NCBI GenBank assembly: GCA_963712385.1
Contig: CAVQHS010000009.1
Span: forward strand, 603,146 to 667,145
DNA: 64,000 nt
Direction: 5' to 3'
DNA from: an uncultured Acidobacteriaceae bacterium
GTDB lineage: Bacteria; Acidobacteriota; Terriglobia; Terriglobales; Acidobacteriaceae
Positions 29,381-59,859 of this stretch are shown here, one piece after another. Both the position numbers and the translations under genes were made by a program. The notes under the pieces were generated by a model, which saw only the letters and a program-made list of their open reading frames with translations, was not told the origin of the DNA and searched no databases. Numbering within the stretch: position 1 is the stretch's first letter; each line of letters opens with the position of its first letter.

Positions 29381-29433
29381 CGTTACGGAAGTCAAATCTC
29401 CCAGCCGCGACTGCAGCCAGTTCGCAGGAACCA

Positions 29434-30215: not shown

Positions 30216-30244
30216 TGCTGTTCTCCTTAATGATTTGGGTTTCG

Positions 30245-32276: not shown

Positions 32277-32286
<10 letters not shown>
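31843..32286 (-). CDS. Single-domain response regulator (Rcp1-like)
   Basis: LLIVDDNPADIAL...PDLVILDLNLPKRDG...IPVVIFSTS...ANCYLSKP. The start overlaps the upstream kinase by 10 nt. Confidence 0.85.
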
Positions 32287-33469
<1,183 letters not shown>

Positions 33470-33473
<4 letters not shown>

Positions 33474-42174: not shown

Positions 42175-42179
42175 TGCAA

Positions 42180-42620: not shown

Positions 42621-42705
42621 AACAACCTCCCCTTCGCAATTTCATCACGTCGGTTACACGCCAGCCAGATGACTGAAGTCACCCTGCCTGGCGTTCCGCA
42701 TTGCT

Positions 42706-43806: not shown

Positions 43807-45980
43807 GCCCGGCCTCCGGCGGTGCCCAGAGCCAGACGCGCACGGTCGGCCGCATTCAGCAAGAGGCCAAAGCTGCTCATGCCCGTTTCGTCCCGCCGGA
43901 ATTTCGAGATATGTTCTACTACTGCTGGCAAGTTGAGGATCAGCACTACTTTCCCATCTCCCAGGATGGAGGCGCCGCTTACCAGATCGGTGGAGAAAGT
44001 TTGATCGTCCAAAGCTTTGATCACTAATTCCTCTTCGCCTTCGAGTGCGTCGACGATCAACCCGTATTTCTTCTCGCCGACCGTGATCACTAAAACGAAC
44101 AGCTTGCCCTTGCGATCTCCATCCGCGGGAGCGCCGCGGCCAAGGCGCAGCAGAGGCATGACCTGGTTGCGAAGCTGCCAGACTTCATAGTTGTCCACCT
44201 GATGAACTTCGTTCTCGGTTGTGCGTGCGATCTGGCTAACGGCGTTCAGCGGAATCGCGTAGAGCCGCTGTTCCACCCAGAACATGAGCGCCTTGATGAT
44301 GGCCAGCGTGAGCGGAAGCTTCAAACGGAACGTTGTTCCTTGCCCGGGGCGAGTCTCGATGTGAATGGTGGCCTTCAGACGTTGCAGTACGCTTTGCACC
44401 ACATCCATGCCTACGCCACGCCCGGAAACCTCGGTGACTTGCTCGGCGGTAGTGAAACCGGGACGGAAAATCAGCTCCACTGTCTCCGCTTCGCTCAGGC
44501 GCGCGGCTTCTTCGGCAGTAATGATTCCCAGCTGGATGGCTTTGTCGCGAACCTTCATGGCGTCGATTCCGCGCCCGTCGTCGGTGACTTCAACTACCAC
44601 CTGATTGCCCTGATGAAAGGCGTGCAAGCGAATCGTTCCCCGGTGTGCCTTGGCTAAGTTTTTGCGTTCTTCGGGCGGTTCAATGCCGTGACTGACAGCG
44701 TTTCTGACGAGATGCGTCAGAGGTTCGGCAATAGCGTCCAGAATGCCCTTGTCCAGATCCGTTTCCTGTCCACTCAGTTCGAGATCGACTTCGCGACCGC
44801 ATTGCAGCGCCACATCGCGCACGATGCGCGGAAAACGGCGGAATAGTTGATCCACCGGGACCATTCGAATCTTCATCACCGAGCGTTGCAGATCGTTGAG
44901 CACACGTGACTGAAAGGCCATGGCATCGGCGAATTTTCCGCGCAGCATTTCTCTGGGATAGCGTTTGCCGAACTCGATCATGACTTGTTGCAACATCGAT
45001 TTGCCGATGATGAGCTCTCCGACCAGGTTCAGAACGTTGTCGATGCGTCCAGCTTCCACGCGGAGGATATTCTCTGTTGCTGGCGCCTGTACCGGAGTTT
45101 CCTGCGCTGGGACGATGGTCTCGGCTTCCGAGAAAGACATCTCAGGTGGATTCTTCTCCGCAGCTTCCGTCGTGGGTGGTTCCGGTGACGCCGAAACCGT
45201 TTCCTGGGGCTTCTCGGCTTCTCTCGGTTCGGCCGCAGCAATCAGAGTTACACTGACTTCGCCCGCAATCGTCGGAATGCGGACTTTGGCGGCAATCTCA
45301 CGCTCGGAGTGTGAACTCGCGAGTACGAATTCCACCTGCTTGGCCGCAGCAGCCGATCTCGCATCGGGCCGTGCCATCAATACTTGGCCGATGGTGCTGA
45401 TCGCGTTCTGAAGAAGTTGGCGCGCTGCGATCGGCATGGCGCAATGCGGATCGATCTTCACCATCACTTCATGCAATGCCAGACCTGCGGCCCGGGCCTG
45501 AGCCATCGCCTGCTTCTCGGTAGCGGTCCAGTTCTTGCCGGAATCCATGCGGCCTTTGGCGGTCTTCTTTGTGGAGCGCGATTTCTTGGCGGCGGGAGCA
45601 GTGGTCAATTCTCGCACGCGCTTTCGCAATGCGTCCGTAGGAGGAAGGGAAGCTCCTCTGTGATATGCCGCGAGCATCTCGGCAAAAACATCCGCAGCAG
45701 TAAACGCAATTTCCGCCAGCGCCGCATGCGCAGCCGCGCTTTCCAGGGAGAGCGCATCTTCAAACTGATGCGCCAGTTCGCTCAACTCCCGGAATCCGCA
45801 CGCCGCCGAATCTCCCTTCAGCGTGTGGACCACGCGCCGGATGGAACGCACGATCTCCTCGTCGCCGGAATTTTTCTCCAGCTTCAGGGTCTCGTCGTTC
45901 AGCGTCTGCAGCAGTTCCTGGGAAGTTTCGAAGAAAAGTTCCCGCAGTTCTGCTCCACGCTCATCAGGACCGTCTGTCAC
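43803..45980 (-). CDS. cheA: Chemotaxis histidine kinase CheA
   Basis: Hpt VHTLKGDSAACGF. Dimerisation and HATPase domains (HLVRNAVSHGIE, DDGRGID, GRGVGMDVV). C-terminal CheW-like domain. 4-nt overlaps with cheR and cheB. Confidence 0.9.
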   Translation of the reverse strand: MTDGPDERGAELRELFFETSQELLQTLNDETLKLEKNSGDEEIVRSIRRVVHTLKGDSAACGFRELSELAHQFEDALSLESAAAHAALAEIAFTAADVFAEMLAAYHRGASLPPTDALRKRVRELTTAPAAKKSRSTKKTAKGRMDSGKNWTATEKQAMAQARAAGLALHEVMVKIDPHCAMPIAARQLLQNAISTIGQVLMARPDARSAAAAKQVEFVLASSHSEREIAAKVRIPTIAGEVSVTLIAAAEPREAEKPQETVSASPEPPTTEAAEKNPPEMSFSEAETIVPAQETPVQAPATENILRVEAGRIDNVLNLVGELIIGKSMLQQVMIEFGKRYPREMLRGKFADAMAFQSRVLNDLQRSVMKIRMVPVDQLFRRFPRIVRDVALQCGREVDLELSGQETDLDKGILDAIAEPLTHLVRNAVSHGIEPPEERKNLAKAHRGTIRLHAFHQGNQVVVEVTDDGRGIDAMKVRDKAIQLGIITAEEAARLSEAETVELIFRPGFTTAEQVTEVSGRGVGMDVVQSVLQRLKATIHIETRPGQGTTFRLKLPLTLAIIKALMFWVEQRLYAIPLNAVSQIARTTENEVHQVDNYEVWQLRNQVMPLLRLGRGAPADGDRKGKLFVLVITVGEKKYGLIVDALEGEEELVIKALDDQTFSTDLVSGASILGDGKVVLILNLPAVVEHISKFRRDETGMSSFGLLLNAADRARLALGTAGGRA

Positions 45981-46888
45981 TCCCGCACCTCAATCCGCTG
46001 ATATGCCGTTCCGCTGTCGCGATGCACCATCTTGAATTTTTCGGTTATCCCCAACAGGCTCTCCGCGTGTCCCACAAACAGATAGCCGCCGGGGTTCAAG
46101 CATCGGTAAAACTTCTCAATCAGCCGCTTCTGCTCCGGTTCGTCGAAATACATCATCACGTTGCGGCAGAAGATTACGTCGTTGCGTTGGGGCAAGTACT
46201 CCGTCTTCAGATTGTGGAAGTCGAAATGGACGATTTCTTTCAGAGCTTTCTTGATCGCGTAGCGATCACCGACTTTGTCAAAGTAGCGCAGACGGTAGGC
46301 GTAATCGACGGTGCCCATCTGGTGCTCGCTGTAGGCGGCTTCCTGGCCGGTGCGCAGCACCGAGTAGCTGATGTCGCTGGCCAGAATTTCTACGCGCCAC
46401 GGAGGCGGAATTAAGGGTTTCGGCAGAGCGATTTCGACGGGCAGCGGATTGCGCAGATAATAGTAGGCCAGCGAATCGGCCGACAACATGCCCAGCGTGT
46501 AGGGTTCCTGTCCGGTGGAGCAGCCCGCGCTCCAGATCCTTATGGAATATTCCCGCCGTGCTTGCTTCTGCTTCAACATCTCCTCCAGCACGTGCTTTTG
46601 AAACAGATCCAGTTGCGCCTTGTGCCGGAAGAAACTGGTCTCGTTCACCGTCAGGTTTTCGACCAATTTGGCCAGTTCGTCTTTGCCCTCGCGGCTGATC
46701 AACAGGCGATAGTAAGCGTAAAAGGAGTCGGCGCGGCATTCCTTCAGCCGCCGCAGAAGCCGGTCCTGCAGGAAGTGCATGCGCCGTTCATCGAAGTGCA
46801 TGCCGCACTCCTGATAGACCAGCGCTTGTAGGAGCCGAAGTTCCGCTTCCGTCAAAATGGGAGCTGGCGCCGCTCCGGATGTACTCAT
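45977..46888 (-). CDS. cheR: Chemotaxis methyltransferase CheR
   Basis: NETSFFRHKAQLDLF, IRIWSAGCSTGQEPYTLGML, DVIFCRNVMMYFD. Confidence 0.9.
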   Translation of the reverse strand: MSTSGAAPAPILTEAELRLLQALVYQECGMHFDERRMHFLQDRLLRRLKECRADSFYAYYRLLISREGKDELAKLVENLTVNETSFFRHKAQLDLFQKHVLEEMLKQKQARREYSIRIWSAGCSTGQEPYTLGMLSADSLAYYYLRNPLPVEIALPKPLIPPPWRVEILASDISYSVLRTGQEAAYSEHQMGTVDYAYRLRYFDKVGDRYAIKKALKEIVHFDFHNLKTEYLPQRNDVIFCRNVMMYFDEPEQKRLIEKFYRCLNPGGYLFVGHAESLLGITEKFKMVHRDSGTAYQRIEVRE

Positions 46889-46945
46889 TCGTGTCCTCGT
46901 TCTATGCGCGCACTCATCGATTTCGTCTGTCGAATTCCCATCGCC

Positions 46946-47440
46946 TTACTTGCCGGCAACCGCTTTTCGCGTTTCTTCCGAAGCTGTTTTCTTCGCCTCC
47001 GTTTGCAGCAAACTCGCGGGCGCTAGCAGCTTGTTCATATCGAGCAGAACAATGAGCCGGCCCTTGACTTTTCCCAGCCCAGTCACGCAATTCAGTCCGC
47101 CTTCCTGAAATGCGGCCGGCGGAGCTTCCACATCTTCGTTCGGAATCTTCACCACTTCAGAGGCCGAATCCACAATCAATCCCGCCAGCTTTCCTGAATG
47201 CTCCACCACCAAGATTCGATTGCGTCTCTTGCCTTCGACTTGCTTGACGCCGAAGCGCTTGCGCAGGTCCATCACGGAAACAATTTTTCCCCGCAGGTTG
47301 ATCACGCCTTCGAGATAGTCGGGTGCGTCAGGAACTGCCGTAATTTCCGGGACGCGCACAATCTCGTGCAGGGAAGTGATGGGCACGCCGTAGGTCTCGC
47401 GCCCAACCTGGAAGCCAACGATATGGAGTTCGCGATTCAT
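46946..47440 (-). CDS. cheW: Chemotaxis coupling protein CheW
   Basis: FQVGRETYGVPITSLHEIVRVPEITAVPDAPDYLEGVINLRGKIVSVMDLRKRFG. Confidence 0.9.
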   Translation of the reverse strand: MNRELHIVGFQVGRETYGVPITSLHEIVRVPEITAVPDAPDYLEGVINLRGKIVSVMDLRKRFGVKQVEGKRRNRILVVEHSGKLAGLIVDSASEVVKIPNEDVEAPPAAFQEGGLNCVTGLGKVKGRLIVLLDMNKLLAPASLLQTEAKKTASEETRKAVAGK

Positions 47441-47457
47441 CGCTCGTTCGTCAATTT

Positions 47458-49440
47458 CTAGCGGCGTGACCCAGCCGTTGCGCGGCGCGCATGTTGCGGC
47501 CTGTCTTCAGGCTCGTGCTCGCGTGATTCAGACTCGTCGAGCGTGAAGCGGTCGAGGTAGTCGAGCAGGCCGCGCGACATCTTCGACATCTGCTCGGCAG
47601 ATGCGGCCAGTTCGGTCGAGCCAGAAGTCGACTGCTGCACCAATTCGCGCATCCGCTCCATCGCTTTTACCACTGCCTGTGCTCCAGATGCCTGCTCTTC
47701 GACGGCCGAGTTGATTTCGTGGGTGATTTCGTTCAGCCGCGTGGTCGCGCGCGCAATTTGAGACGAACCGTGAGACTGCTCATTCGTAGCAGCGCCGATT
47801 TCCTGCGCGAACTTGTAGACTTCCGTGACGACGTTCGAAATCTTGCGCAACGCCGAGTTCAGCTCGCCGCCCAGATCGAGACCCTCGTTCACGATGCCGG
47901 TCGAGCGATCCATGTTCTCTACGGCCTTGCGGGCTTCCTTTTGAATGCTTTGAATCAGTTCGGAGATTTCCTTGGTCGACTGCGCTGACTTTTCCGCCAG
48001 CTTGCGGACTTCATCGGCGACCACCGCGAAGCCCAATCCGTGTTCGCCGGCGCGCGCCGCTTCAATGGCCGCATTCAGCGCCAGCAGGTTGGTCTGCTCG
48101 GCCAGATCGTCGATGACTTCGATGATCTTTCCGATATCGTCGGCTCGAGCTCCGAGTGCTCCGATGATCTCACCCGAAGAAGTGATGGTGGCATTGATAC
48201 GGTTCAGGCCGTCGGTGGCCTTTTCCATCGTGGTGATGCCGCTGTGAACTTCTTCGCGGGAGCGGTTGGAAATGTCGAGTAGCACCTTTGCCGTGTCGGC
48301 CACGCGCTGAATGGAGGCGACCATCTGATCGATGGAAGCCGAAGTTTCGCTTACGCTGGAAGCCTGCACCTGCGTGCTCTTCACCATGTTCTGCACGTTC
48401 ACGCTCATCTCGTGCATGGTGCTGGTAACTTCGTCGATGGCGGAAGAAGCTTGCAAGCCGACTTTGGCGGAATCATCCGAGGCGTTGGCGACCTGTCCGG
48501 ATGCGCTCGCCACTTGTGCTGAAGCGTCGCGGACGCTGCGCACTAATCGTGCCAGGCCTTCCACCATGCGGGCGAACGCGTTGCCCAACGTGTCGTGCGG
48601 AGAACGCGGCTTCACTTCCACGGTCAGATCGCCGCCCGCGATGGATTCGGAAACGCCCGCCATTTCCTTGAGGTAATTCACCATCTTGGCAAACGAGCGC
48701 GCCAGTTCTCCGATTTCGTCCTGGCGGGTTGCGTCGATGTTGTGTTCCAGGTCGCCCGTGTCGCCGATCTGCCGCGACACGATCATCAAGTTCGTCAGCG
48801 GCTGGGTGATCGATTTCGCCGTGGTGAAAGCGACGAACACGCCGAGCGCCAAAGCTACGAGAGTGCTAAGAACCGCCGCTAGAATCGTCCACGTGCTCGC
48901 CGTCTGATCTGACTTACTCCGTTCGTCCACTAGTTTGTGATTTTCGGCATCGGCCACATCGAGAGCGTCGGTTGAATTCTTCACCCAAGAGGATGCGTCT
49001 TTCTGCAGGTAGTAAATCTGCAACTCGGCAACTGTCGCGTTCCCCGAGTCCACGTCCTTGCGTTTGTCGATCAACGGTTGCGCAAACTCTTTGCCCCACG
49101 ACTGTTCCAGTTGTTCCACCCGGTCCAGCGCGGAGTGCTCCTGATCGGAATTCGCGAGAGACTTGCCCAGTTGCAGTTTCTCGTTGAGGATTCTCAGCCC
49201 CTCGTTCATCCGGTCCACTTCCCGGCTGTCTCCGCTGAGCAGGTAGTTGCTCAGGTAGAGGCGATTCTGCATCATCTGGAAGCGGACCTGGGTGGTGGCA
49301 TCCGTAAGCTCAATCGACTTTTTGGCGGCCGCTTTAGCGTCATGCTCCCGCTGCACCGCCAGAATGTTCACCAGGAACAGCACCACCACCATCCCCAGAA
49401 TGATTCCGAAATTTACATAAAGCTTTTTGCCGATCGTCAT
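47458..49440 (-). CDS. Methyl-accepting chemotaxis protein (two TM helices, helical periplasmic sensor, HAMP)
   Basis: TM1 [21 protein letters not shown], a ~160-aa helical ectodomain, TM2, and HAMP. Signalling hairpin [36 protein letters not shown]. Confidence 0.9.
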
Positions 49441-49470
49441 GCCGTTATTCCTCCGGCCGCCTTCTCACAA

Positions 49471-49815
49471 CTACTGATGAGGCTCGAACTTGAAATCCAC
49501 CACGCCCGTGCTTTCCCCGGGAGCAGGCTCAAAGCGCCACTTCTTCACCGCCTCCAGCGCCGCTGACGCCAAGACCGGGTGTCCGCCGATTACCTTGGCA
49601 TCCTTTACCGATCCGTTCGGGGCGACCGTCACCTGAACTTTGACCGTGCCCGTAATATTCATCTTTCGCGCCAGATCCGGATAGACCGGTGACACTTTGC
49701 TTTTGGCGCGACGGACAATCTCGTTGTCAGAATCCTGGGCTCGCACTCCCACCCAACCAGTTCCAGCCATAACTGCAACCACTGCGAACAGCGCTCCTGT
49801 CCGTCGCAAAGACAC
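49471..49815 (-). CDS. Secreted TonB C-terminal-domain-only protein
   Basis: SKVSPVYPDLARKMNITGTVKVQVTVAPNGSVKDAKVIGGHPVLASAALEAVKKWRFEP is a TonB_C fold signature. The preferred start is GTG 49815, with a GAGGAGG RBS and signal peptide MSLRRTGALFAVVAVMAGTGWVGVRA. The ORF-track start at 49866 overlaps the promoter motif. Confidence 0.7.
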   Translation of the reverse strand: MSLRRTGALFAVVAVMAGTGWVGVRAQDSDNEIVRRAKSKVSPVYPDLARKMNITGTVKVQVTVAPNGSVKDAKVIGGHPVLASAALEAVKKWRFEPAPGESTGVVDFKFEPHQ

Positions 49816-49849
49816 AGTTCCTCCTCGGGAATGTATTGCCTTGCTTCCG

Positions 49850-49865
49850 AGCAACGCCGTGGCCA
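49850..49865 (-). promoter_or_regulatory. Candidate sigma-54 (-24/-12) promoter of the chemosensory operon
   Basis: The minus strand reads TGGCCACGGCGTTGCT. GG and GC are separated by exactly 10 nt and a TTGC -12 element is present (consensus TGGCACG-N4-TTGCW). It lies 35 nt upstream of the GTG 49815 start. Confidence 0.6.
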
Positions 49866-50082
49866 CGTCTCACTTTCCGCGAAAACCAAAGTCACGTTCG
49901 CGATGTGCGTGCAAAAGACGGACTTAAGACAAATCGTCAGATTCTGGCGAGACTTCGCCCCGGGATTAGCCACGTCTCATAACCGGCCGAGCCCGCCTTC
50001 ATTCTCAAAGTGAGAGCGATCAGGGCTGAATTCTCGGGATTTCACACTTTGGCACCTGCTCCTGCATTTTTCTTGACTCAAA

Positions 50083-53000
50083 TTGAGATTGCAGGATATT
50101 TTTCCAATAGATTCAATCACTTGTGAGAATCTCGAAAATCCCGTTTCGGCCATCGGTGACGCTCTGAAACCCGCGGACGGAAAGTCGACGCACTCGTCGG
50201 TTCACATCAATTCGGACGAGGCTTTCCAACAATTGCTGCTTCAGATCGCCGCCAAGGCCGCAGAGCGCTCCGACTCTTCCGCTCTGATCAAGCTTTTCTG
50301 CAAAGCCACCAGGGAATTCTTCCAATGTTCCGGCGTCTATTTCTGGCGGCGGCATCCCGGCGACGAACTGGTTGCCGAATATGCTGACGGGAAGCTGGCC
50401 GAGCGCTTCGCCGGCATTCGCCTGCTGCCGCAGCAGAGCGCAATCACCATCGACGCCGTGCGCCGGCGGCGCACCGTTATCGTCAAGCATCAAATGCCCT
50501 CCGCCGTCCTGCCCGCGTTGCAACCATTCGAGCCGCGCTCGCTCATGGCTACGCCTCTGGTGGTCTTCGACGAAGTCATCGGCTCCGTCACCTACTTGCA
50601 TGACTCCCAGGATGATTTTTTTGACGATGACATGGGAGCAAAGGCCACGATTCTCGCCGGCCAACTCGGCAGCCTGCTCGAAGCCACCCGCCTTAGCGAA
50701 GTTTCGCGGGAAGAGCATCGTCGCGCGGAAATCCTGACGGAAGTGGCTACCGCGCTTCATGGCACTCCTGACGTCAATTCGGTCACGGAATCTCTTGCCG
50801 ACCGGTTGCGCCTCCTCCTGCGCACCCGCCTGGTATCAGTGCTCCTGCGGCGTGAGGGACCTTTCGAGCTAAGAGCTGTTTCTGCGGAAACGCCGCAACT
50901 GGCAAACTCTTTCCGTGCCCGTCACGATCGCCAGACGATCCGGTTCGCAGCCGATCTGGCGCAGCGTGCGGTTTCCGCAGGTGAGGCGATTACCGTTTCC
51001 GTCAGCAGCGATCAGCATTCCCTTGGCAGCGTGATCTCTCCCGGCATGCTGATTGCTGCGCCCTTCCGCACGACGCGAACGCAAGGCGCTGTTCTCGTTT
51101 ATCCACGAGCCGAGGGCGTTTACACGGCAGAAGAAAAATCGCTGGTCTCCGCGGTTGCCGGCTTCGGGGCCGTGGCCATGGCGCACGCCGAACGATGTGC
51201 CACGGCCCAGGGGCAGGCGCGCGAACTCCACCAACTTTTGGAGATTTCTTCGGAACTCAGTTCGAGTGGCGACCTCGACCAATTCCTGCAGGCTTTCGCC
51301 GTGCGCGCCGGCGACTTCCTTGGCTTCGGCCGCTGCTTCATCGCTTTGCTGGAAGACGATGTGTTTCGCGTGCGCCACAGCGTGAGCCACGGGCAATCGA
51401 GCCGGGTGGCGGAGGTTTTCCCCGAAGGAATCGCGACCCGCGCGCTCCGCGCCAAGGAAGTTTTCTGGTCCGACGATCTCAGCCACGAGCCGGGCGTAAA
51501 TCAGCAGGCCATCGCGCAATACGAGGCCCGGCAATTGCTGGCGGTGCCGTTGCTGGGCGCGAACGGCGGTGTGCTGGGAATGTTCGGCGTGCTTGACCGC
51601 CTCGATGGCACTGGCATCTCGCGCGAAGATGTGCGCCGCGCGAAGGCTCTCGCTGCCCAGGTGTCGGTGGTTCTCGAGGTCGCTCACAATCTGCATCAGT
51701 CCGAACTCAACCGCCGCCGCTCCGATGTCTTGATCCAACTGGCGCGTGAAATCGACGGCTTGCTGCGTTTGCCTGACTTTGCCCGCAAGTTTGTCGAGCG
51801 CGCGATCGAGTTGGCTGGCGCGAAGTCGGGCGCCCTCGCTCTGGTTCAGGATGGCCGATTTCAAACGATGGCCATTCACTCGATCCAGCGGCCATCGACA
51901 TCGGAACGGGATCTAAATGCAAGCGCGGCTTCGTTGGCTTCATCGGAAGCGGCTGTTCCCGAGGTTCGTCCGCACGCGGTAGATCATTTCCAGAATCAGC
52001 AACTCGCCCACGCTCTTTCCGCGCTCGTAGCAAAACGCTCAGAGACGATTGTGTCCGGTTCGGCTTCCGAGTTGCTGGGAGAGCGGCTGGCTTCCAGCCT
52101 GGGCTGGGCCGATTGCTTGATCCTTCGCCTTCCCGGCTCGAACGGAGAACTGGCGGGATTGCTTTGCCTTTCAGGACGCACGCATCCAGTCACGCAAGAG
52201 GATCGCGAGTTGCTCGAAGCCATTGCGGGCCACGCCTCCATGGCCTTGGAGAGTGCCCGCCTGTTTACCCGCATCGAACAGGCGAACCGTCATTGGCTGG
52301 AGATCTTCGACGCGATTAGCGATCTGATTGTCGTTCACGACGAGACCGACAAGGTTTTGCGCGTAAACCGCTCTCTTGCCGCAATGATCGGCGTGGCTCC
52401 GAGCGAATTGATCGGCGTGAATATGCGCGCGCTGCTGGCTCTTACCAACGACCCAGCGCTTTATTCCTGCCCTTTCTGCCGCACCATGGGCGAGGATTAC
52501 GATGAGTTCCTCCATCCCGCGCTCGATCGCACGTATCTGGTTTCTACTTCCCGCGTGCATGGCGCCTCGGGCGAGAATTTGCAAACCATCCATGTCTTGA
52601 AAGACATCACCGACCGCCGCGAGGCGGAACGGCGCTATCGCGAGCTGTTCGACAACATTCAGGAAGGCCTGTTCTTCAGCACGCCCGAAGGCCGCTTCGT
52701 GGAAGTGAACGATGCCCTGGTCGCCATGTTCGGATATTCCAGCCGGGAAGAATTGTTGCAGGTGGATATCCCCAGCCAGATTTATTTCACTCCCGACCAG
52801 AGAACTCTCCATGCCCAAACCATGGAGAAAGACGGCCACATGCGGAACTTCGAAGCCACCCTTCGCCGCAAGGACGGCTCGCCCATTTACGTGCTCATTA
52901 ACGCATTCGGCATGTACGACAACCTCGGGCGTCTGGTGCAGATTCGCGGCCTCATGCTCGACGTGACCGGTCTGCACACTTACCAGTCGGAGTTACAGCG

Positions 53001-54093
53001 CGAGCGCGATTTCTCCGCAAAGATTCTCAGCAATACGCAGAGCTTCATTCTCGTCTCCGACACTGCGGGACTTATCAGCTACGCCAACCGCCGCTGGCAC
53101 GAAGCTGGTTTCGAGCAGCGGGAATTGCTGGGACGTCCCGTGCTCGAACTTGCCGCTCCCGGCTACGTTCGCTCTCTCTCCGATGCTCTGCAAACCACCT
53201 TGCGCGGCGGGCAGGTCGATAACCTGGAGATGCAGGTGATGCGGGGCAACGGCCACGTCGGCCAGTTCTCGGTGAATCTGAGTCCGATGCGCGACGAGCA
53301 GGGAAATATCAACAGCATCGTCGTCGTCATGACCGACATCACCGACTCCGCCGATCTCCGCGACAAATTAGTTCATGCCGAGAAAATGGCGGCTGTCGGG
53401 CAGCTCGTCTCCGGTGTCGCCCATGAGGTAAACAATCCGCTGACTGCCATTCTCGGTTTCGCCGACCTGCTCCTCGAGAATCCCGAGATTCCGGAAAGCG
53501 CCCGCAAGGATATTCGCGTCATCCTGCAGGAAGCGCAGCGCACCAAGATGATCGTGCAAAACCTGCTGAGTTTTGCGCGGCAAATGCCTCCGCAGCGCAA
53601 CGCCGTGCAGATCAACCTCATCCTGCGCCGCACTATTCAACTGCGTTCCTACGATTTCTCCAGCCACGGGGTTGACATCGTTGAGCACCTGGACGAAGGC
53701 TTGCCGGAAGTCATCGGTGATGCGCACCAGTTGCAACAGGTGTTTCTCAACATCCTGAACAACGCTTACGACGCCGTGCATGAAGTCGGCCGGCCCGCCC
53801 GCATTGAGATCATGACCACGAAGGCGGGCAACGCAGTAGAAGTCTCCTTCCGCGACAACGGCACCGGCATTGAGAACCCTGACCGCATCTTCGATCCATT
53901 CTTCACGACGAAAGAAATCGGCAAAGGCACCGGCCTCGGCCTCAGCATCTGTTACGGCATCGTGAAGGAGCATGGCGGAGAAATTCTCTGCCACAACAAC
54001 ACAGACGGTCAGGGAGCTACTTTCATCGTCCGCTTTCCCGCAGCGCCCCACACTGCCACTCTGGGTGTGGCCGCAGGAGTGCTACAAAAATGA
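50083..54093 (+). CDS. Cytoplasmic multi-GAF / three-PAS sensor histidine kinase
   Basis: 1336-aa ORF with no TM helix. Repeated GAF-like blocks are followed by PAS modules (EIFDAISDLIVVHDE..., ELFDNIQEGLFFSTPEG..., KILSNTQSFILVSDTAG...). H-box SGVAHEVNNPLTAI. G-boxes DNGTGI and GTGLGLSICYGIV. The start is uncertain (TTG 50083). Confidence 0.85.
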   Translation: MRLQDIFPIDSITCENLENPVSAIGDALKPADGKSTHSSVHINSDEAFQQLLLQIAAKAAERSDSSALIKLFCKATREFFQCSGVYFWRRHPGDELVAEYADGKLAERFAGIRLLPQQSAITIDAVRRRRTVIVKHQMPSAVLPALQPFEPRSLMATPLVVFDEVIGSVTYLHDSQDDFFDDDMGAKATILAGQLGSLLEATRLSEVSREEHRRAEILTEVATALHGTPDVNSVTESLADRLRLLLRTRLVSVLLRREGPFELRAVSAETPQLANSFRARHDRQTIRFAADLAQRAVSAGEAITVSVSSDQHSLGSVISPGMLIAAPFRTTRTQGAVLVYPRAEGVYTAEEKSLVSAVAGFGAVAMAHAERCATAQGQARELHQLLEISSELSSSGDLDQFLQAFAVRAGDFLGFGRCFIALLEDDVFRVRHSVSHGQSSRVAEVFPEGIATRALRAKEVFWSDDLSHEPGVNQQAIAQYEARQLLAVPLLGANGGVLGMFGVLDRLDGTGISREDVRRAKALAAQVSVVLEVAHNLHQSELNRRRSDVLIQLAREIDGLLRLPDFARKFVERAIELAGAKSGALALVQDGRFQTMAIHSIQRPSTSERDLNASAASLASSEAAVPEVRPHAVDHFQNQQLAHALSALVAKRSETIVSGSASELLGERLASSLGWADCLILRLPGSNGELAGLLCLSGRTHPVTQEDRELLEAIAGHASMALESARLFTRIEQANRHWLEIFDAISDLIVVHDETDKVLRVNRSLAAMIGVAPSELIGVNMRALLALTNDPALYSCPFCRTMGEDYDEFLHPALDRTYLVSTSRVHGASGENLQTIHVLKDITDRREAERRYRELFDNIQEGLFFSTPEGRFVEVNDALVAMFGYSSREELLQVDIPSQIYFTPDQRTLHAQTMEKDGHMRNFEATLRRKDGSPIYVLINAFGMYDNLGRLVQIRGLMLDVTGLHTYQSELQRERDFSAKILSNTQSFILVSDTAGLISYANRRWHEAGFEQRELLGRPVLELAAPGYVRSLSDALQTTLRGGQVDNLEMQVMRGNGHVGQFSVNLSPMRDEQGNINSIVVVMTDITDSADLRDKLVHAEKMAAVGQLVSGVAHEVNNPLTAILGFADLLLENPEIPESARKDIRVILQEAQRTKMIVQNLLSFARQMPPQRNAVQINLILRRTIQLRSYDFSSHGVDIVEHLDEGLPEVIGDAHQLQQVFLNILNNAYDAVHEVGRPARIEIMTTKAGNAVEVSFRDNGTGIENPDRIFDPFFTTKEIGKGTGLGLSICYGIVKEHGGEILCHNNTDGQGATFIVRFPAAPHTATLGVAAGVLQK

Positions 54094-54491
54094 CAACTCC
54101 CAGCGTTCAATCCTCCCCGTTGCCGGTTTTACTCATCGAGGACGAACCCTCCATCATGGCGCTCGTCAGCGCCACGCTGGAACGTAACGGTTATCACGTC
54201 GAATGCATCGAGTCGGGCGCCGAAGCGCTGCGCATGCTCGAAAACGGCCGATATCTGGGTGTTGTCTCTGACATGCGCACACCCGGCGGCGTCGATGGCG
54301 CGCAAGTGCACTCCTGGATCGCGGCCAATCGTCCCGATTTAGTCGACAAAATTGTGATCATTACCGGCGATTACGCCAACGAAGAAACGGTTAGCACTCT
54401 GCGCAGAATCGGCGCACTCTATTTAGAAAAGCCTTTTCGTGTGCAGGACCTGATCGCCGCGGTAGAAAAAACCATGGGGAAAGCACGGTGA
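54090..54491 (+). CDS. Single-domain response regulator
   Basis: VLLIEDEPSIMAL...LGVVSDMRTPGGVDG...IVIITGD...LEKP. 4-nt overlaps with both neighbours. Confidence 0.8.
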   Translation: MTTPSVQSSPLPVLLIEDEPSIMALVSATLERNGYHVECIESGAEALRMLENGRYLGVVSDMRTPGGVDGAQVHSWIAANRPDLVDKIVIITGDYANEETVSTLRRIGALYLEKPFRVQDLIAAVEKTMGKAR

Positions 54492-55969
54492 CTACAGCCT
54501 TAAACAAAGACGAACTGCGCGTGCGTTTACTGATCGTTGATGATGAGCAGACCATCCGCAAGCTCTGCATGACCGTGGGCGAAGCCCTTGGCTTCATCTG
54601 CCTGGAAGCCGAAAGCGGCGAGGCCGCCCTGGCTCTGCTCGAAGAACAACCGGTTCACATGATCCTCAGCGACATGGTTATGCCCAACATGTCCGGCCTG
54701 GAATTTCTGGAAAAGGCGAAGAAACTTCTGCCGCGCTCCGAAGTCGCGCTGATGACGGGCCATGGCTCCATCGAAACCGCCGTGCAAGCCATGCGCCTTG
54801 GCGCCTACGACTACATTACGAAACCGTTCTCTCCCCTCGATGAGCTGCGCATGTTCCTGCGCCGCATGGCGGAAAAAGTCCGCCTGGTCGAGGAAAACGA
54901 ATTTCTCCGCCAGCGCATGGACTCCGAAACCGCGGTGCACGGCATCATCGGGTCGTCCGCCAAAATTCAGGAAGTTCTGCGGGTCGCTTCTCGTCTGAAA
55001 GACACGCGCACCGCTGTTCTTATTTCGGGCGAAAGCGGCACTGGCAAAGAGTTGATCGCGCGTGCCATCCATTTTCGCGGCGCATTCGCCAGCCGACCAT
55101 TCGTCGCCGTCGATTGTGGTTCGCTCGTGCCCACGCTAATCGAAAGCGAACTCTTCGGCTACGAAAAAGGTGCGTTTACCGGAGCGCTGCGATCGAAGCA
55201 AGGACTGTTTCAATCCGCCGACACGGGAACGGTTTTCCTCGACGAGATCGGCGAGCTCCCTCTAGAGTTACAAGCAAAACTACTGCGGGTCTTGCAGGAA
55301 AAAGAAGTCCGCCCGGTCGGCAGCAACCAGCGCGTCAAAGTCGACGTTCGCGTAATCGCCGCCACCAACCGCGATCTCGAAGCCGCCTACAAAAACGGAA
55401 CCTTCCGCAAAGATCTCTACTTCCGGCTGAACGTAGTAACGCTTCACGTCCCCGCCCTGCGCGAGCGCCGCAGCGATATTCCCATGCTAGTGAACTGGTT
55501 CTGTGAGCGCTACGCTCCCGGCGCGGAAATGCGCGTCTCAAACGCAGGCATGAAAGCCCTGATGAGCTACGACTGGCCCGGCAATGTCCGCGAACTAGAA
55601 AACTGCGTAGAACGCGCCGTAGCCCTCGGCAACGGCAGCCTAATCGATCTCGGCGATCTTCCTTCCTCGATCGCCGGATTGCATCCCGCGGCGCGTTCCG
55701 CAAGTGCAGCGCCGGAACTCGTCTCCGATCTCGCCGCCTCGGCTGCGCTCGGATCGAGCGACGGCTTGGCCGAAACCCCGCTCTCCACAACCGATCTCGA
55801 AGATATCGAACGTGCCACCATTCAACGCGTGTTCGAGCAAGTGAAGGGCGACAAAGCGCTAGCCGGACGAATGCTCGGCATCAGCCGCGCCACGTTGTAT
55901 CGCAAGCTGAAGAGATACAACATCACCGGCCAGTCGGCGGCTGGATCGTCAAGCCATACGCTGCAATAA
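54488..55969 (+). CDS. Sigma-54-dependent response regulator (NtrC family enhancer-binding protein)
   Basis: REC (LLIVDDEQTIRK, HMILSDMVMPNMSG). AAA+ (GESGTGKE, ESELFGYEKGAFTGA). Fis-type HTH (LGISRATLYRKLKRY). Confidence 0.9.
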   Translation: MTTALNKDELRVRLLIVDDEQTIRKLCMTVGEALGFICLEAESGEAALALLEEQPVHMILSDMVMPNMSGLEFLEKAKKLLPRSEVALMTGHGSIETAVQAMRLGAYDYITKPFSPLDELRMFLRRMAEKVRLVEENEFLRQRMDSETAVHGIIGSSAKIQEVLRVASRLKDTRTAVLISGESGTGKELIARAIHFRGAFASRPFVAVDCGSLVPTLIESELFGYEKGAFTGALRSKQGLFQSADTGTVFLDEIGELPLELQAKLLRVLQEKEVRPVGSNQRVKVDVRVIAATNRDLEAAYKNGTFRKDLYFRLNVVTLHVPALRERRSDIPMLVNWFCERYAPGAEMRVSNAGMKALMSYDWPGNVRELENCVERAVALGNGSLIDLGDLPSSIAGLHPAARSASAAPELVSDLAASAALGSSDGLAETPLSTTDLEDIERATIQRVFEQVKGDKALAGRMLGISRATLYRKLKRYNITGQSAAGSSSHTLQ

Positions 55970-55983
55970 GCAATCACGCAAAA

Positions 55984-56018
55984 ACCCCTGAAAATTTCGG
56001 GGTGTCATTGCGTTTTTT
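55984..56018 (+). terminator. Weak terminator-like hairpin after the activator gene
   Basis: acccc-tgaaaatttc-ggggt followed by gtcattgcgttttttc. The stem is short, so this is only moderately convincing. Confidence 0.4.
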
Positions 56019-56163
56019 CGGGCCGCGTTTTACTACGGCTTTTTCTCCTCCTTCTTTTTCTTCTCTTCCGGAGTCTGTGGTTTCGGCTGCGGGCTGTGCA
56101 GAGGCGCGGCTGGTTTTACCGTTTTCTAAGGGCCTGAAGGGTGCCCGCCGCGACGGCTCTTGA

Positions 56164-56180
56164 CTGAGACGATGTCTCAG
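56164..56180. promoter_or_regulatory. Perfect 7-3-7 palindrome CTGAGAC-GAT-GTCTCAG (candidate activator or operator site)
   Basis: Read directly from the sequence. A third TGAGAC half-site lies at 56183..56188. The centre is ~115 nt upstream of the sigma-54-like motif at 56283. Confidence 0.5.
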
Positions 56181-56282
56181 GATGAGACTGAATGTTTAGG
56201 GCATTACGAAGCAGATTGAATCAAGCACCGTAAACAATTGAAAAATCTAGTCCTGCAGTTCTAGCCCTTCCGTTCCCAGGCG

Positions 56283-56298
56283 TGGTCTCGCTCGTGCT
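56283..56298 (+). promoter_or_regulatory. Weak candidate sigma-54 promoter
   Basis: TGGTCTCGCTCGTGCT has the correct GG-N10-GC spacing but a poorer -24/-12 context than the site at 49865. It lies 110 nt upstream of the TTG 56408 start. Confidence 0.3.
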
Positions 56299-56407
56299 CT
56301 ATCTCCCGGCATAACCGCGTGTTTCGGCTCCCCAACGCTCTTCCTAACCGGGAAGAGGGGGAGCCCAACTCGCATGTTGGACGAGAAGTAGGAACGAGGA
56401 ATTTGTC

Positions 56408-56776
56408 TTGGGGCAGATCGGGTCAGCAAAGGCGCGGGCAAAACAGGACAGCGTGGTTGCTGACCTCGCTCGTTTTTTTCCCGAAGCTGCGCCCGTCCGG
56501 ATTCCCGTGCAGCTTACGCGTAAGAGTGGCACAAACGAAGGTCAGCCGGGCAACCTCGGACTTCCGGAAAATACCGTCATCGAATTCGGCACCCCGCGCG
56601 AAGTTCTTTTTGCCTGCAAAACCCCTCTCGAATTCGCCGATGTGCTGCGCCTGCGCAACTCCGATGGCTCTCTCGATACCGAAGCCTCCGTGGTCGCGCT
56701 GCAATATCGCCCCGATGCGACGATTGTGGCCGCCCGCTTTCTCAGCTCAGTTCCCAACTGGATCGTGAAATCATGA
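56408..56776 (+). CDS. Small hypothetical protein (122 aa), first gene of a four-gene operon
   Basis: TTG start preceded by gaggaa. Beta-strand-rich text (VRIPVQLTRK...TVIEFGTPREVLFACKTPLEFADVLRLRNSDGSLDTEASVVALQY). The stop overlaps the next ATG (ATGA). Confidence 0.5.
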   Translation: MGQIGSAKARAKQDSVVADLARFFPEAAPVRIPVQLTRKSGTNEGQPGNLGLPENTVIEFGTPREVLFACKTPLEFADVLRLRNSDGSLDTEASVVALQYRPDATIVAARFLSSVPNWIVKS

Positions 56777-57915
56777 CACCTTCTACTCAACCGGCATCCT
56801 CAGCTCCGGATTTTGCGGCGCTTTGGGCCAACGCCCGCCAGCTTCATCCCATTTACCTCGAGCTGGCACGCGAATTCGTGATTGACATGCCCGTCTGTCC
56901 GGCTCTCAACGAACCGCTGGATGCGCCCGATCAGGAAACCGTGCAGCAGGCGCAGCAATGGCTGCATGACATGGATGACCGCATTCAGGTTCACCAGTTG
57001 CGCCAGTTCCTGCAGACCAGTTCAATCGTGAATCCAGCCGGACTCGCGGCGCTCATCCAGCATTATTTATCCAAGCCAACGCACACCGATTCTTCCCGCG
57101 ACAAGATCGACTTTCTCCTCGTGCAATATTTCAGCCAGAAGGCCCCGACGGAACTCGATGACGACGGAGCGGACTTGGCCTATGTCGCCGGGGAATTGGA
57201 GCCGCTGCTGGGCAGCATCGAGTTAAAAGCACCTGTCTGGCTGAATGCGCTGGATCGCGTTTTGGAAGCGGCGCGCCGTTGCCAGTCGCTTGACGAGTTG
57301 TTGCATGGCGGCGTGCTGGAACAGGGCCGCAAGGCGAAAGCGCAAGCCGGAGAGCTGTTCTACATGCCGATCGCGCTGATCGCATTCACCCGCTTCGGCT
57401 ACCTCATGCGGCGCGCGTTCTTCCGCCTGATGCTTACCGATTTGAACAATATTCTCGACGGCCTCACGAAACTCGAGGAACGTGGAGTAGAAACCATCGA
57501 TTGCCGCCGAGCGCAGTTTTCCGCGCAGGAACCGATTGTGCGCCTGCGGATGATCTGCCATTCCTGGAAAGTGATGTTCCAGGCGGAATATTCGTCTGGG
57601 CAGCCGTTGCGCATGTTGGTCGACTTGCGGGCCGCGGTCGATGCAGCGTTGGGCAGCGATTCGGCAGAAGAGGACGAAAAAGCTCTGGAGCGCAGTGCGG
57701 CGGCCAAAGCAGTTTCTGCGGTGCCCGCCAAGCCTCGCGCCGCGGCCGCCGCTGCCAGCGCCGGCCGCACAATCAAAGCGACTGCGCCCCAGAAGAGTGC
57801 TCCCTCCAAAGCCAATTCCGGTGCGGCGAATGACGATGCTCCCGAATTTGACGTTTCCGCTGCGCCCGCGGAGTGGAGTGTAGACGAGGAGCCGCAGCCG
57901 AAAAAGAAGCGGTAA
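56773..57915 (+). CDS. Hypothetical protein (380 aa) with an Ala/Pro-rich acidic-basic C-terminal tail
   Basis: A clean helical ~300-aa body is followed by the low-complexity AAKAVSAVPAKPRAAAAAASAG...EEPQPKKKR. No family recognised. Confidence 0.55.
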   Translation: MTPSTQPASSAPDFAALWANARQLHPIYLELAREFVIDMPVCPALNEPLDAPDQETVQQAQQWLHDMDDRIQVHQLRQFLQTSSIVNPAGLAALIQHYLSKPTHTDSSRDKIDFLLVQYFSQKAPTELDDDGADLAYVAGELEPLLGSIELKAPVWLNALDRVLEAARRCQSLDELLHGGVLEQGRKAKAQAGELFYMPIALIAFTRFGYLMRRAFFRLMLTDLNNILDGLTKLEERGVETIDCRRAQFSAQEPIVRLRMICHSWKVMFQAEYSSGQPLRMLVDLRAAVDAALGSDSAEEDEKALERSAAAKAVSAVPAKPRAAAAAASAGRTIKATAPQKSAPSKANSGAANDDAPEFDVSAAPAEWSVDEEPQPKKKR

Positions 57916-57978
57916 GACAGAACTTATTACTAGTCGTTTCCATCATGAGCAGTGAGAGTTCGCGAAAGTTGCGAAACC

Positions 57979-58680
57979 ATGAACAAGGATCACGCAGTGG
58001 AACATCCGACCGTACTCATAATTTCCGATGAAGTCGAATTTTCCCGCAGTGTAACTGCGCGCTGGCAAGCCGAGCGCAGCGCGCCCACATTCACGGTGAT
58101 GAGCGGCGATCTTTGGCCGCGCACAGTCGAGAATTTCGAGGTCGCGATTGCCGGCCCATTGCGCCGGGAACTGCTTTCGCCAATCCTCGAACCCCTACAC
58201 TCAACTTTGCAGCCGGTTTTCTGTGTTTGCCCCGACGCGCCCACGGCGCAGTTGGTGCGCTCTCGGTGGCCGAGGATTTCCGTCTTGCGCCGCGACGAAA
58301 ACTGGCTGGACGCATTAATTTTCGCCGCCAGCGAAGCCGTTTACCGTTCCCAGGCTGAGGCGCGCGCCCGTGCCGCCGAACAGAATTGCGCCACGCTCGA
58401 GCGCCAGGCGATGTTGGGACGTTACATGCTGGAAATGCGGCACGGTCTGAACAACGCCCTCACCTCGCTGCTGGGCAATTCCGATCTGCTTCTGATCGAG
58501 CCGGGCAGCTTGTCAGCCCAGGCCCGCAGTCAGATCGAAACCATCCGCAATATGACGTTACGCATCCACGAAGTGATGCAACGCTTCTCTTCTCTCGAAA
58601 AGGAGATGAACGTGGTCGCGCAGCAGTTGGAACGGGATTCAGGCAAGATCCGGGTCGCCGCGGCGGCAGGGGCTGATTGA
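57979..58680 (+). CDS. Pseudo-receiver plus HisKA-like (DHp) domain protein lacking an ATPase domain
   Basis: ATG 57979. The receiver-like N-terminus (TVLIISDEVEFSRS...) has VAIAG where the phospho-Asp motif is expected. The H-box-like LEMRHGLNNALTSLLGNSDLLL is followed by a second helix, and the protein then ends. Confidence 0.6.
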   Translation: MNKDHAVEHPTVLIISDEVEFSRSVTARWQAERSAPTFTVMSGDLWPRTVENFEVAIAGPLRRELLSPILEPLHSTLQPVFCVCPDAPTAQLVRSRWPRISVLRRDENWLDALIFAASEAVYRSQAEARARAAEQNCATLERQAMLGRYMLEMRHGLNNALTSLLGNSDLLLIEPGSLSAQARSQIETIRNMTLRIHEVMQRFSSLEKEMNVVAQQLERDSGKIRVAAAAGAD

Positions 58681-58788
58681 GGAAAGAAGGTTCTCACACG
58701 GGGAAGTCGGCAGGAAGAATTCATTCTCTAGCAGAATTCGCCGATCTGTAAGTGATGGAAGTGCGAGTCGGTTGGATTGGGCAAAGCT

Positions 58789-59859
58789 ATGCATAGGTTA
58801 ATAGCGACCAGCACCATTCTGGAGCACGAAGTCTCCGAGTTGCGGCTTTTGACCGAGCGGCAGATCGGAGTGGTCCTCGATTGCCCGAACAGCGCTCTCG
58901 CTGCGCGGGTCGCCGATTTCCTGGAAGCCCACGAGTTGCCTTCCGTCGCAGCTCTTCTGGAACGCCTGAAATCTTCCGAGTCGGATGCTTCCGCGCTTCC
59001 CGACGTCCTCGACGGTCTGCTGAACAACAATACCGGCTTCTATCGTCACTCGAACGCACTCAACGCACTAACCCGGCAAGCGCTGCCACAGCTATGGGCC
59101 CGCAAGTCGGCGGATGGTCCAGCTCCCATTCGCATCTGGAGCGCGGGTTGTGGTTCGGGGGAAGAGACCTACTCCATCGCCATGGCCGTCTGCGAGGCGG
59201 TGAATCCTGCGAATATAAGCGCTGCCTTCACCAGTACGAGTAGCGCCGGCAAAGCGAGCCCCCGCAATGGAGGCATCGCAGAAAACTCGCAAGGCACAGC
59301 TTCGCAAACGGTGAAGGGAACCCCCGCATGTTCCGTGCACATCGTAGGCAGCGATCTGCTCCCTTCGAACATAGATGTAGCCGATCGCGGAGTTTATCCG
59401 CAATCGTCGCTCGATGGCTTGTCGCCGGCGATCATCCGTAATTATTTCTCGAAAATCAGCTCACCCACGGCCGCAGTCATGGAAGCCCAACCCGACCTGG
59501 ACAACGAGCGAACCTCGCCTTCGTCCTCCGCGGAAACCCGGCGTCCGTCTACCGCTCATCTTTTAGTGAAACCGCGCCTGCGCAGCCTGGTCACTTTCAA
59601 CTGCATGAACCTCGCACGCCCCGGCTATATCGGCCGCTTCGACTGCATCTTCTGCATGGATGTTCTGCCACACTTTTCGCGCGCCCAGCGCTTGGCGCTT
59701 CTGGAACGCCTGCACTTGTATCTCGAGCCTGGCGGTTATCTGTTCTTAAGTCAGACGGAGAAGTTGGTGGCGCCAAACCTGAACTTCCGTTCCGAGAGTT
59801 TCGATGGCTACACCTACCATCGCAAGCCGCTGGCCGCGAGCGCGGCGTACGGAAGATAG
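58789..59859 (+). CDS. CheR-family SAM-dependent methyltransferase with low-complexity insertions
   Basis: NNTGFYRHSNALNAL, IRIWSAGCGSGEETYSIAMAV, FDCIFCMDVLPHF, LEPGGYLFL. Two Ser/Ala/Thr/Pro-rich inserts are present. ATG 58789 (a TTG lies at 58777). Confidence 0.75.
   Translation: MHRLIATSTILEHEVSELRLLTERQIGVVLDCPNSALAARVADFLEAHELPSVAALLERLKSSESDASALPDVLDGLLNNNTGFYRHSNALNALTRQALPQLWARKSADGPAPIRIWSAGCGSGEETYSIAMAVCEAVNPANISAAFTSTSSAGKASPRNGGIAENSQGTASQTVKGTPACSVHIVGSDLLPSNIDVADRGVYPQSSLDGLSPAIIRNYFSKISSPTAAVMEAQPDLDNERTSPSSSAETRRPSTAHLLVKPRLRSLVTFNCMNLARPGYIGRFDCIFCMDVLPHFSRAQRLALLERLHLYLEPGGYLFLSQTEKLVAPNLNFRSESFDGYTYHRKPLAASAAYGR

Follow-up and report, generated by a model that had tools for sequence, protein, structure and literature searches.

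We analysed a stretch of 64,000 nucleotides (nt) from an uncultured Acidobacteriaceae bacterium (GenBank assembly GCA_963712385.1, contig CAVQHS010000009.1, positions 603,146 to 667,145 of the forward strand; hereafter called the window), and we focused on four genes located at positions 56408 to 59859, close to a chemosensory (che) operon. Judging from the sequence signals around them, these genes appear to form one transcription unit with its own sigma-54 promoter, preceded by a tripartite TGAGAC site that recurs upstream of the che operon. The explanation that best accounts for the whole locus, and to which we give an even chance, is that the adjacent NtrC-type activator would have the four genes in its regulon and that the product of gene 3 would feed back on the receivers of the histidine kinase encoded in the activator operon. 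The operon thus looks like an accessory or feedback module rather than a new system standing by itself. The genes and the elements that precede them are as follows:

55976-56019, + strand: terminator-like hairpin and U6 run, immediately behind the activator gene (inverted repeat)
56165-56188, + strand: tripartite upstream site TGAGAC-GA-TGTCTCA-GGA-TGAGAC (palindrome plus a third half-site)
56231-56244, + strand: conserved block TAAnnnnnTGAAAA, located between site and promoter (conserved alignment columns)
56283-56298, + strand: sigma-54-type promoter TGGTCTCGCTCGTGCT (GG and GC at the canonical -24/-12 spacing)
56317-56375, + strand: 5' leader hairpin with loop C-UAACCG-G (folds and stem covariation)
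56408-56776, + strand: gene 1, 122 residues, TTG start
56773-57915, + strand: gene 2, 380 residues
57952-58680, + strand: gene 3, 242 residues with the GTG start as listed; comparison with relatives makes ATG 57979 (233 residues) likelier
58777-59859, + strand: gene 4, 360 residues with the TTG start as listed; comparison with relatives makes ATG 58789 (356 residues) likelier

Genes 1 and 2 are joined by an ATGA overlap, which predicts translational coupling and which 152 of 194 distinct related loci retain; gene 3 follows gene 2 after 36 nt, and gene 4 follows gene 3 after 96 nt. A previous, sequence-only reading of the window had described four closely spaced, same-strand genes with this overlap, directly downstream of a kinase/receiver/sigma-54-activator operon, and the coordinates all hold, with a gap of 439 nt between the two operons. 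A terminator scan between genes 1 to 4 yielded nothing convincing, its matches being at chance level, and a simple promoter scan found no sigma-70-like site. The hairpin that follows the activator gene, which a simple terminator scan overlooks (-18 kcal/mol, z score -2.4, then UUUUUU), appears to separate the activator operon from the four-gene operon. Because the activator gene ends in this terminator-like hairpin with its U-run, genes 1 to 4 need a promoter of their own.

The pattern TGG-N8-KTGCW was found upstream of gene 1 in all 223 related loci, against 0.06 occurrences expected per 350 nt. The strict tripartite pattern is present in 195 of these 223 loci, with near-variants in the remaining ones, and its start precedes the -24 TGG by a median of 119 nt; in the window, the site lies about 95-120 nt upstream of the promoter. 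We thus found what is looked for in a sigma-54 promoter, namely the -24/-12 spacing, a site 100-150 nt upstream and an activator gene nearby. Almost all tripartite matches across the loci examined are located here or upstream of the che operon. Among the matches listed for the genome collection, 48 tripartite sites are followed by a sigma-54-type motif, and about 40 of them correspond to this locus, in Acidobacteriota. Since the TGAGAC hexamer is not enriched over the 64-kb window (18 found for 28.8 expected), the motif claim rests on position and conservation. The conserved block between site and promoter resembles, on its complementary strand, what we take to be the consensus of an integration host factor site.

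The neighbouring genes relevant to this regulon are the following:

50083-55969, + strand: activator operon
50083-54093, + strand: GAF/PAS histidine kinase (Pfam)
54090-54491, + strand: single-domain receiver (from its sequence and alignment with receivers)
54488-55969, + strand: NtrC-type sigma-54 activator (Pfam)
41677-49866, - strand: che operon, encoding TonB_C-like, methyl-accepting chemotaxis protein (MCP, 47458-49440), CheW, CheR, CheA, CheB, CheY and CheX proteins (Pfam and spacing of the open reading frames, ORFs)
49850-49865, - strand: sigma-54-type promoter TGGCCACGGCGTTGCT preceding the divergent che operon; TGAGAC copies at 49867-49872 and 49974-49979

In 168 of 222 loci, gene 1 is preceded by the activator operon, at distances of 98 to 7528 nt. 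A DUF6600 gene, unrelated and on the opposite strand, often sits between the two; in other loci, long + strand ORFs in this interval were considered and set aside as probable antisense shadows of that gene. At the che operon, the strict promoter pattern is present in 42 of 84 distinct relatives, with TGAGAC or TGAGAA sites upstream of it, and in 17 loci a full tripartite site precedes the TonB-like/che operon on the opposite strand. That a TGAGAC motif is common to the upstream regions of both operons, as the sequence-only reading had remarked, is therefore borne out by conservation of its position and by its recurrence in relatives. As both operons carry the same type of enhancer and the same type of promoter, the che operon and genes 1 to 4 would be induced together. 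We infer from gene neighbourhood that the protein presumed to bind the tripartite site is the adjacent NtrC-type activator, and we consider it likely that this activator, acting via the GAF/PAS kinase, drives both operons.

Several observations concern the same signals. The TonB_C-like ORF at 49471-49866 (- strand) probably has its listed start too early, as the sigma-54-type promoter falls inside the ORF; relatives favour GTG 49815 as the start, which a GGAGGA-type ribosome site precedes. A candidate sigma-54 promoter for the kinase operon itself, at ~50049-50066, was rejected, since its elements stand one base too far apart and relatives do not conserve it. Inside the MCP gene, TGAGAC occurs twice, 12 nt apart, on the opposite strand (47759-47776, + strand), possibly by chance. 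A tripartite site with a sigma-54-type motif was also found beside NtrC-like genes of 33-38% identity in three loci devoid of nearby homologues of genes 1 to 3 (L258, from a Haliangium metagenome-assembled genome (MAG), L339 and L346), and this activator subfamily may recognize the motif more widely.

The proposed feedback hinges on gene 3. Its product matches HisKA, the dimerization and histidine phosphotransfer (DHp) domain of histidine kinases, with an E value of 9e-5 and 22.9 bits, under the Pfam cut-off of 26.9. This DHp is 33% identical (E=5e-7) to that of the GAF/PAS kinase at 50083-54093, with His164 aligned on the kinase His. The 120 best relatives of gene 3 are 220 to 281 residues long (median 232), those with any Pfam domain on record have HisKA only, and HATPase_c is absent from gene 3 and from all 120. 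The His is conserved in 109 of 113 relatives, and so is an Asn at His+4 (109/113); His+1 is Gly165 in the window and T, S, N or G in 109 of 113 relatives. Compared with HisKA kinases, gene 3 hence has the DHp His and lacks both the ATPase domain and an acidic residue at His+1. In HisKA kinases, kinase activity alone requires the acidic residue beside the His, and phosphatase activity alone the Thr or Asn at His+4 (PMC3510030). Because gene 3 has no ATPase domain, no acidic residue at His+1 and an Asn at His+4, its kinase determinants would be lost and its phosphatase determinant kept. This residue pattern suits a phosphatase-only DHp protein at least as well as a His-phosphotransfer adaptor.

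The N-terminal half of the gene 3 protein has the strand pattern of a receiver, and Gly occupies the position equivalent to the phospho-acceptor Asp in 102 of 104 relatives. It has no Pfam Response_reg match; its best PDB profile match (E=5e-6) is the de novo designed protein OR386, which we take to have a flavodoxin-like alpha/beta fold. We tentatively regard this half as a CheY-like domain devoid of the phospho-acceptor Asp. The description of gene 3 as a pseudo-receiver plus a DHp domain with a His and no ATPase thus stands for the conserved His and the missing ATPase; the receiver-like nature of the first half is where it is weak. Kinship of gene 3 with the REC-HisKA-HATPase proteins (REC, receiver domain) encoded elsewhere in the window was considered and dropped, as no similarity was found.

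Comparisons between loci distinguish a constant core from a variable appendage. The order and strand of the four genes are preserved in all 80 close loci, as far as contigs reach, and four-gene synteny, which the sequence-only reading had left to be checked, was found in 159 related loci; in the nearest public locus, gene 2 is 81% identical. The organism is related to Candidatus Sulfotelmatobacter (Acidobacteriota, Terriglobia). The order of genes 1, 2 and 3 and the overlap of genes 1 and 2 persist down to ~30% identity of gene 2. What comes next varies. In 159 loci (type A), a CheR gene directly follows gene 3, as in the window. In 40 loci (type B), genes 1 to 3 are followed by CheY-CheW-MCP-CheR-CheA~REC genes; in one of them (L167), the CheA protein combines two matched histidine phosphotransfer (Hpt) stretches with a CheW domain and, at its C-terminus, a receiver. 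Type C, with at least 10 loci, has nothing che-like after gene 3, and no CheR remnant is detectable there. A few lineages, such as L191 (7721-16290), have gene 2 alone, then a second enhancer and a che cluster. Conversely, two Acidobacteriota loci (L256, about 6168-8000, and L286, 1006-4856) have the activator, the enhancer and CheY-CheW-MCP-CheR genes without genes 1 to 3, the che cluster coming right behind the activator. These arrangements do not agree with an indivisible four-gene system: the core consists of genes 1 to 3, or of gene 2 alone in a few lineages, and CheR varies.

Gene 4 does encode a CheR-family methyltransferase, as previously proposed (PF01739, E=1e-36, 126.6 bits for a cut-off of 27). 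Its best solved relatives are PDB entries 5xly, 5xlx and 5y4r, named 'Chemotaxis protein methyltransferase 1' (E=7e-27), which we take to be Pseudomonas aeruginosa CheR1, in some of them complexed with MapZ. Residues 22-140 align to residues 11-125 of 5xly; Pfam CheR_N has no match in gene 4 and matches the L167 relative. The gene is intact and 58-84% identical over the 80 close loci, with the S-adenosylmethionine (SAM)-binding loop WSAGCGSGEE retained and two lineage-specific low-complexity insertions at residues ~145-182 and ~229-261. It groups with the second-cluster CheR of sister lineages, with which it has an N-terminal EHExSExR motif in common, and not with the CheR that the che operon possesses besides it. 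The window operon does not have the core set of a Pil-Chp system, of which only CheR is present; the full set is found in relatives such as L167. The simplest reading of these arrangements is that gene 4 would be the one CheR remaining from a second che cluster, Pil-Chp-like in kind, and genes 1 to 3 a separate, co-regulated core.

Gene 1 had been described as a 122-residue beta-rich protein without canonical PilZ motifs, which our analyses confirm and extend. It has no match in Pfam (E up to 1), in NCBIfam or in a PDB sequence search. An AlphaFold2 model built with 82 relatives contains six beta strands, with a predicted local distance difference test (pLDDT) score of 80.6. Its top Foldseek matches in the PDB are mostly PilZ proteins (BcsA, MotI, PP4397, PA0012, Alg44 and YcgR), with a probability of 1.0, E values of about 2e-3 and template modelling (TM) scores of up to 0.68 on the target. 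The residues invariant among the 82 relatives include L20, A21, F23, F24, P25, R31, E54, E59, F68, P73, L74, E75, F76 and D78, and the RxxxR and D/NxSxxG motifs are absent from them. With respect to the PilZ family PF07238, gene 1 thus has the fold and neither the profile match nor the motifs for cyclic di-GMP (c-di-GMP). According to the model, it is a single-domain PilZ-fold protein that fails the family sequence tests, and it is unlikely to bind c-di-GMP in the known mode.

Gene 2 belongs to no Pfam or NCBIfam family, and PDB sequence and profile searches gave no useful match. The AlphaFold2 model (pLDDT 85.5, and >90 over most of residues 20-300) comprises a conserved all-alpha domain of ~290 residues with 14 helices, and a fold search of the PDB with this model found nothing similar (best E value 0.25, TM <0.2). 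These results agree with its earlier description as a helical protein with an Ala/Pro-rich tail and no recognizable family. The family counts 520 cluster representatives at 50% identity, and nearly all relatives in the genome collection are from Terriglobia MAGs. The tail is a disordered, Ala/Pro-rich, low-complexity linker of very variable length, which terminates in APEF[DE][VI]S and EW[NS] in the clade of the window and leads into another helical domain in distant relatives. In one cluster representative (P0247), the gene 2 domain is followed by a predicted membrane helix and a TonB_C domain similar to the one in the che operon's first protein, a fusion which hints that gene 2 might work at the envelope with the TonB_C-like protein. 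In another (P0266), the end of the gene 2 homologue runs into the N-terminus of a gene 3 homologue; the contig is short, and the join might be natural or stem from a frame error.

The transcript leader also carries a conserved element. The region 56296-56410, which includes the hairpin, folds with -47.7 kcal/mol (z score -3.55), and the YTAACCG loop motif was found in 158 of 223 loci. RNAalifold recovered only the inner 5 pairs from a MAFFT alignment of the leaders, and a covariance model built from the clade of the window retrieved only its own training sequences, not the divergent clade; the covariation is therefore documented by per-sequence folds and by ungapped counts of the inner stem. 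In folds of 16 divergent leaders, the loop is constant, and the stems change between clades yet stay paired. The minimum-free-energy structure closes the loop in 123 of 124 distinct leaders, with pair 3 being CG in 89, GC in 24, UG in 9 and UA in 2 of them. The hairpin occurs in clades whose operon has three or four genes, and Acidoferrum-type leaders lack it. A search of positions 55950-56450 against Rfam (E up to 1) gave no match for it. The leader hairpin and gene 2 are the most novel pieces of the locus.

Taken together, these data lead to the following scheme. The GAF/PAS kinase would phosphorylate the adjacent NtrC-type activator, which in its phosphorylated form would bind the tripartite TGAGAC site and switch on the sigma-54 promoters of the che operon and of genes 1 to 4. 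Gene 3, as a kinase-dead copy of the kinase DHp, would dock onto the receiver encoded at 54090-54491, onto the activator, or onto both, and drain or shuttle phosphoryl groups, thereby exerting feedback on the activator that induces it. We regard a kinase-dead, phosphatase-competent DHp protein feeding back on its own inducer via the kinase's receivers as plausible, at somewhat less than even chances. The products of genes 1 and 2, made in coupled amounts, might assemble with each other, as a PilZ-fold adaptor bound to a scaffold, a proposal that we make with considerable doubt. Gene 4 might methylate the remaining chemoreceptors, for which the chances again fall a little short of even. The most far-reaching version of the scheme is that genes 1 to 3, the enhancer and the UAACCG-loop leader would constitute an undescribed, Terriglobia-restricted device by which a sigma-54 two-component system receives feedback: the phosphorylation of the activator would be set by a DHp stub that has a pseudo-receiver and acts as a phosphatase only, by a PilZ-fold protein that does not bind c-di-GMP and by a new-fold protein, the activator would switch the chemosensory operons, and the hairpin would be a new cis-regulatory RNA motif. 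As a whole, we find it rather unlikely.

A number of observations weigh against this scheme. As regards the regulon, the available upstream sequence does not include the activator operon in about one quarter of the loci, and the window encodes a second sigma-54 activator (23991-25430) that could bind the tripartite site instead. In addition, the loose sigma-54 pattern is unspecific in the window, with 24 matches for 8.6 expected; since it is that common, position and conservation carry the promoter argument. As regards gene 3, alignment of its N-terminus with 10 receivers is weak (hhalign E=0.004, probability 8%, with strands 1, 3 and 4 in register). Its near-invariant His would be dispensable for a pure phosphatase and fits phosphotransfer equally well, and the DHp alpha-1 sequence common to gene 3 and the kinase typifies a large HisKA subfamily, a resemblance that does not prove shared partners. 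As for gene 4, conserved CheR motifs are altered (FCRNVxIYF to FCMDVLPHFS, and GHSE to SQTE), so that the enzyme may have another substrate or none, and the CheR tree on which its grouping is based has a single outgroup. The sequence-only reading had envisioned the four genes as a methylation plus His-phosphotransfer adaptor set plugged into the neighbouring CheA/MCP array or into the GAF/PAS kinase. The link itself holds insofar as site and promoter type are shared, the activator lies upstream in most loci and the DHp domains are homologous; the nature of the set is less secure, given that CheR is not constant and that a phosphatase-only DHp fits gene 3 as well.

Among other explanations, the one that fares best, albeit improbable in our view, is a module acting on the chemoreceptor array rather than on the two-component system. 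Gene 1 would bind a CheR protein, either gene 4 or that of the che operon, and gate methylation in a MapZ-like manner, gene 2 would serve as an anchor, and gene 3 would couple to CheA or CheY. The single-domain PilZ fold of gene 1 and its MapZ-like size are consistent with such a role, as are the nearest solved relatives of gene 4 (5xly, 5xlx and 5y4r), which we presume to be CheR1, in some entries complexed with MapZ. Genes 1 to 3 form one string with CheY-CheW-MCP-CheR-CheA~REC genes in the 40 type B loci, the four-gene and che operons have their enhancer type in common, and one gene 2 relative is fused via a membrane helix to a TonB_C domain. However, gene 1 has neither c-di-GMP motif nor a Pfam PilZ match, genes 1 to 3 occur without any operon CheR in at least 10 loci, the second che cluster is found without genes 1 to 3 in other loci, and the DHp of gene 3 resembles that of the GAF/PAS kinase, not that of CheA.

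The main alternative to phosphatase feedback by gene 3 is a relay of the Spo0 type, which would run from the kinase to the receiver 54090-54491, then to His164 of gene 3 and on to the NtrC-type activator, with genes 1, 2 and 4 as co-expressed cargo. A PAS kinase, a stand-alone receiver, a terminal transcription factor and a DHp protein are all encoded together, and gene 3 has a near-invariant His without an ATPase domain, as such a relay would have it. Nevertheless, the activator would need to be phosphorylated before gene 3 could be expressed from an activator-dependent promoter, and the kinase can probably phosphorylate the activator directly. Moreover, two loci (L191 and L228) have gene 2 without gene 3 yet keep the kinase-receiver-activator operon, and the Asn kept at His+4 points to phosphatase chemistry. 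PDB searches with gene 3 gave no sequence match to Spo0B or ChpT. All in all, we consider this relay distinctly improbable, and feedback of gene 3 on the kinase's receivers is the reading that we prefer.

Least likely of all, with little chance of being right, is the absence of a common function, in which unrelated genes would have gathered under one sigma-54 promoter with CheR as a decaying leftover: CheR is dispensable in some lineages, gene 4 has low-complexity insertions and altered motifs, and nothing ties gene 2 to a known function, but the gene order and the overlap of genes 1 and 2 are kept to ~30% gene 2 identity, gene 4 is intact in the close loci with its SAM loop kept, and the cis-elements are conserved. 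A defence-system reading was dropped as well, since PADLOC gave no defence-system match except a weak methyltransferase hit.

Elsewhere in the window, positions 23991-37815 (- strand) represent a dense signalling region. It includes a kinase with seven-transmembrane (7TM), PDZ, GAF and PAS domains (25459-28401) beside the second sigma-54 activator (23991-25430), two REC-HisKA-HATPase proteins (30245-31846 and 32277-33473) and a 1292-residue multi-PAS kinase with an ethylene-receptor-like N-terminal domain (33937-37815), all on the - strand. RmuC is encoded by two overlapping ORFs (38103-38915 and 38845-39474, - strand), which match profile positions 57-289 and 2-56, respectively; the split corresponds to a frameshift, a pseudogene or a sequencing error.

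The Acidobacteria of the Sulfotelmatobacter and Acidoferrum groups are abundant in peat and soil and mostly uncultured, and their signalling is essentially unstudied. In this setting, the locus would represent a clean regulon, with one activator, one enhancer motif and two operons. It offers a widespread HisKA-only family whose residue pattern predicts a phosphatase-only function, a confidently modelled domain without a fold relative in the PDB, and a leader RNA whose stems covary around an invariant loop. The locus also illustrates how a che cluster may shrink to an orphan CheR and how the orphan is then retained, which bears on the many orphan CheR genes of bacteria. If the feedback model is true, it would constitute a new mode of adjusting sigma-54 activators; otherwise, the locus provides a well-delimited set of conserved unknowns.

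Each of the closest known systems shares one aspect only with this locus. The Pil-Chp system of P. aeruginosa, of the type IV pilus class, is encoded by pilH-pilI-pilJ-pilK-chpA (PMC12632253). Sister lineages similarly carry genes in the order CheY-CheW-MCP-CheR-CheA after genes 1 to 3, and gene 4 groups with that CheR; the assignment of the sister cluster to the Pil-Chp class is from gene order alone. Unlike Pil-Chp, the window keeps only CheR, the sister cluster has no CheB, and genes 1 to 3 have no Pil-Chp counterpart. A second point of comparison is MapZ, the single-domain PilZ adaptor that controls CheR1 in P. aeruginosa (PMC6370697). The likeness lies in a PilZ-fold gene 1 of ~120 residues encoded with a CheR-family gene 4. 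In contrast with MapZ, gene 1 has neither RxxxR nor D/NxSxxG, and it is also found where the operon has no CheR.

Spo0B and ChpT are DHp-type phosphotransferases, and the isolated DHp domain of EnvZ acts as a phosphatase. Gene 3 resembles these proteins by its DHp helix, its conserved His, the absence of a working ATPase and the Asn at His+4. It differs from Spo0B and ChpT by its second domain, which in our reading would be an N-terminal CheY-like pseudo-receiver, whereas theirs is a C-terminal ATPase-like domain. Finally, the Che3-CrdS-CrdA system of Myxococcus xanthus couples a che cluster with a kinase and with an NtrC-like activator (PMC3147164). Here too, che genes lie beside genes for a histidine kinase and an NtrC-type sigma-54 activator. 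In our locus, however, the activator seems to control che transcription via enhancers at both operons, and the accessory proteins are unrelated. We found no description of this gene combination in the literature. The parts are of known kinds, namely a PilZ fold, a HisKA DHp, a CheR protein and a sigma-54 enhancer; what is new is the operon's sigma-54-type promoter, its tripartite site, the covarying leader hairpin and the recurrence of the site at the che operon.

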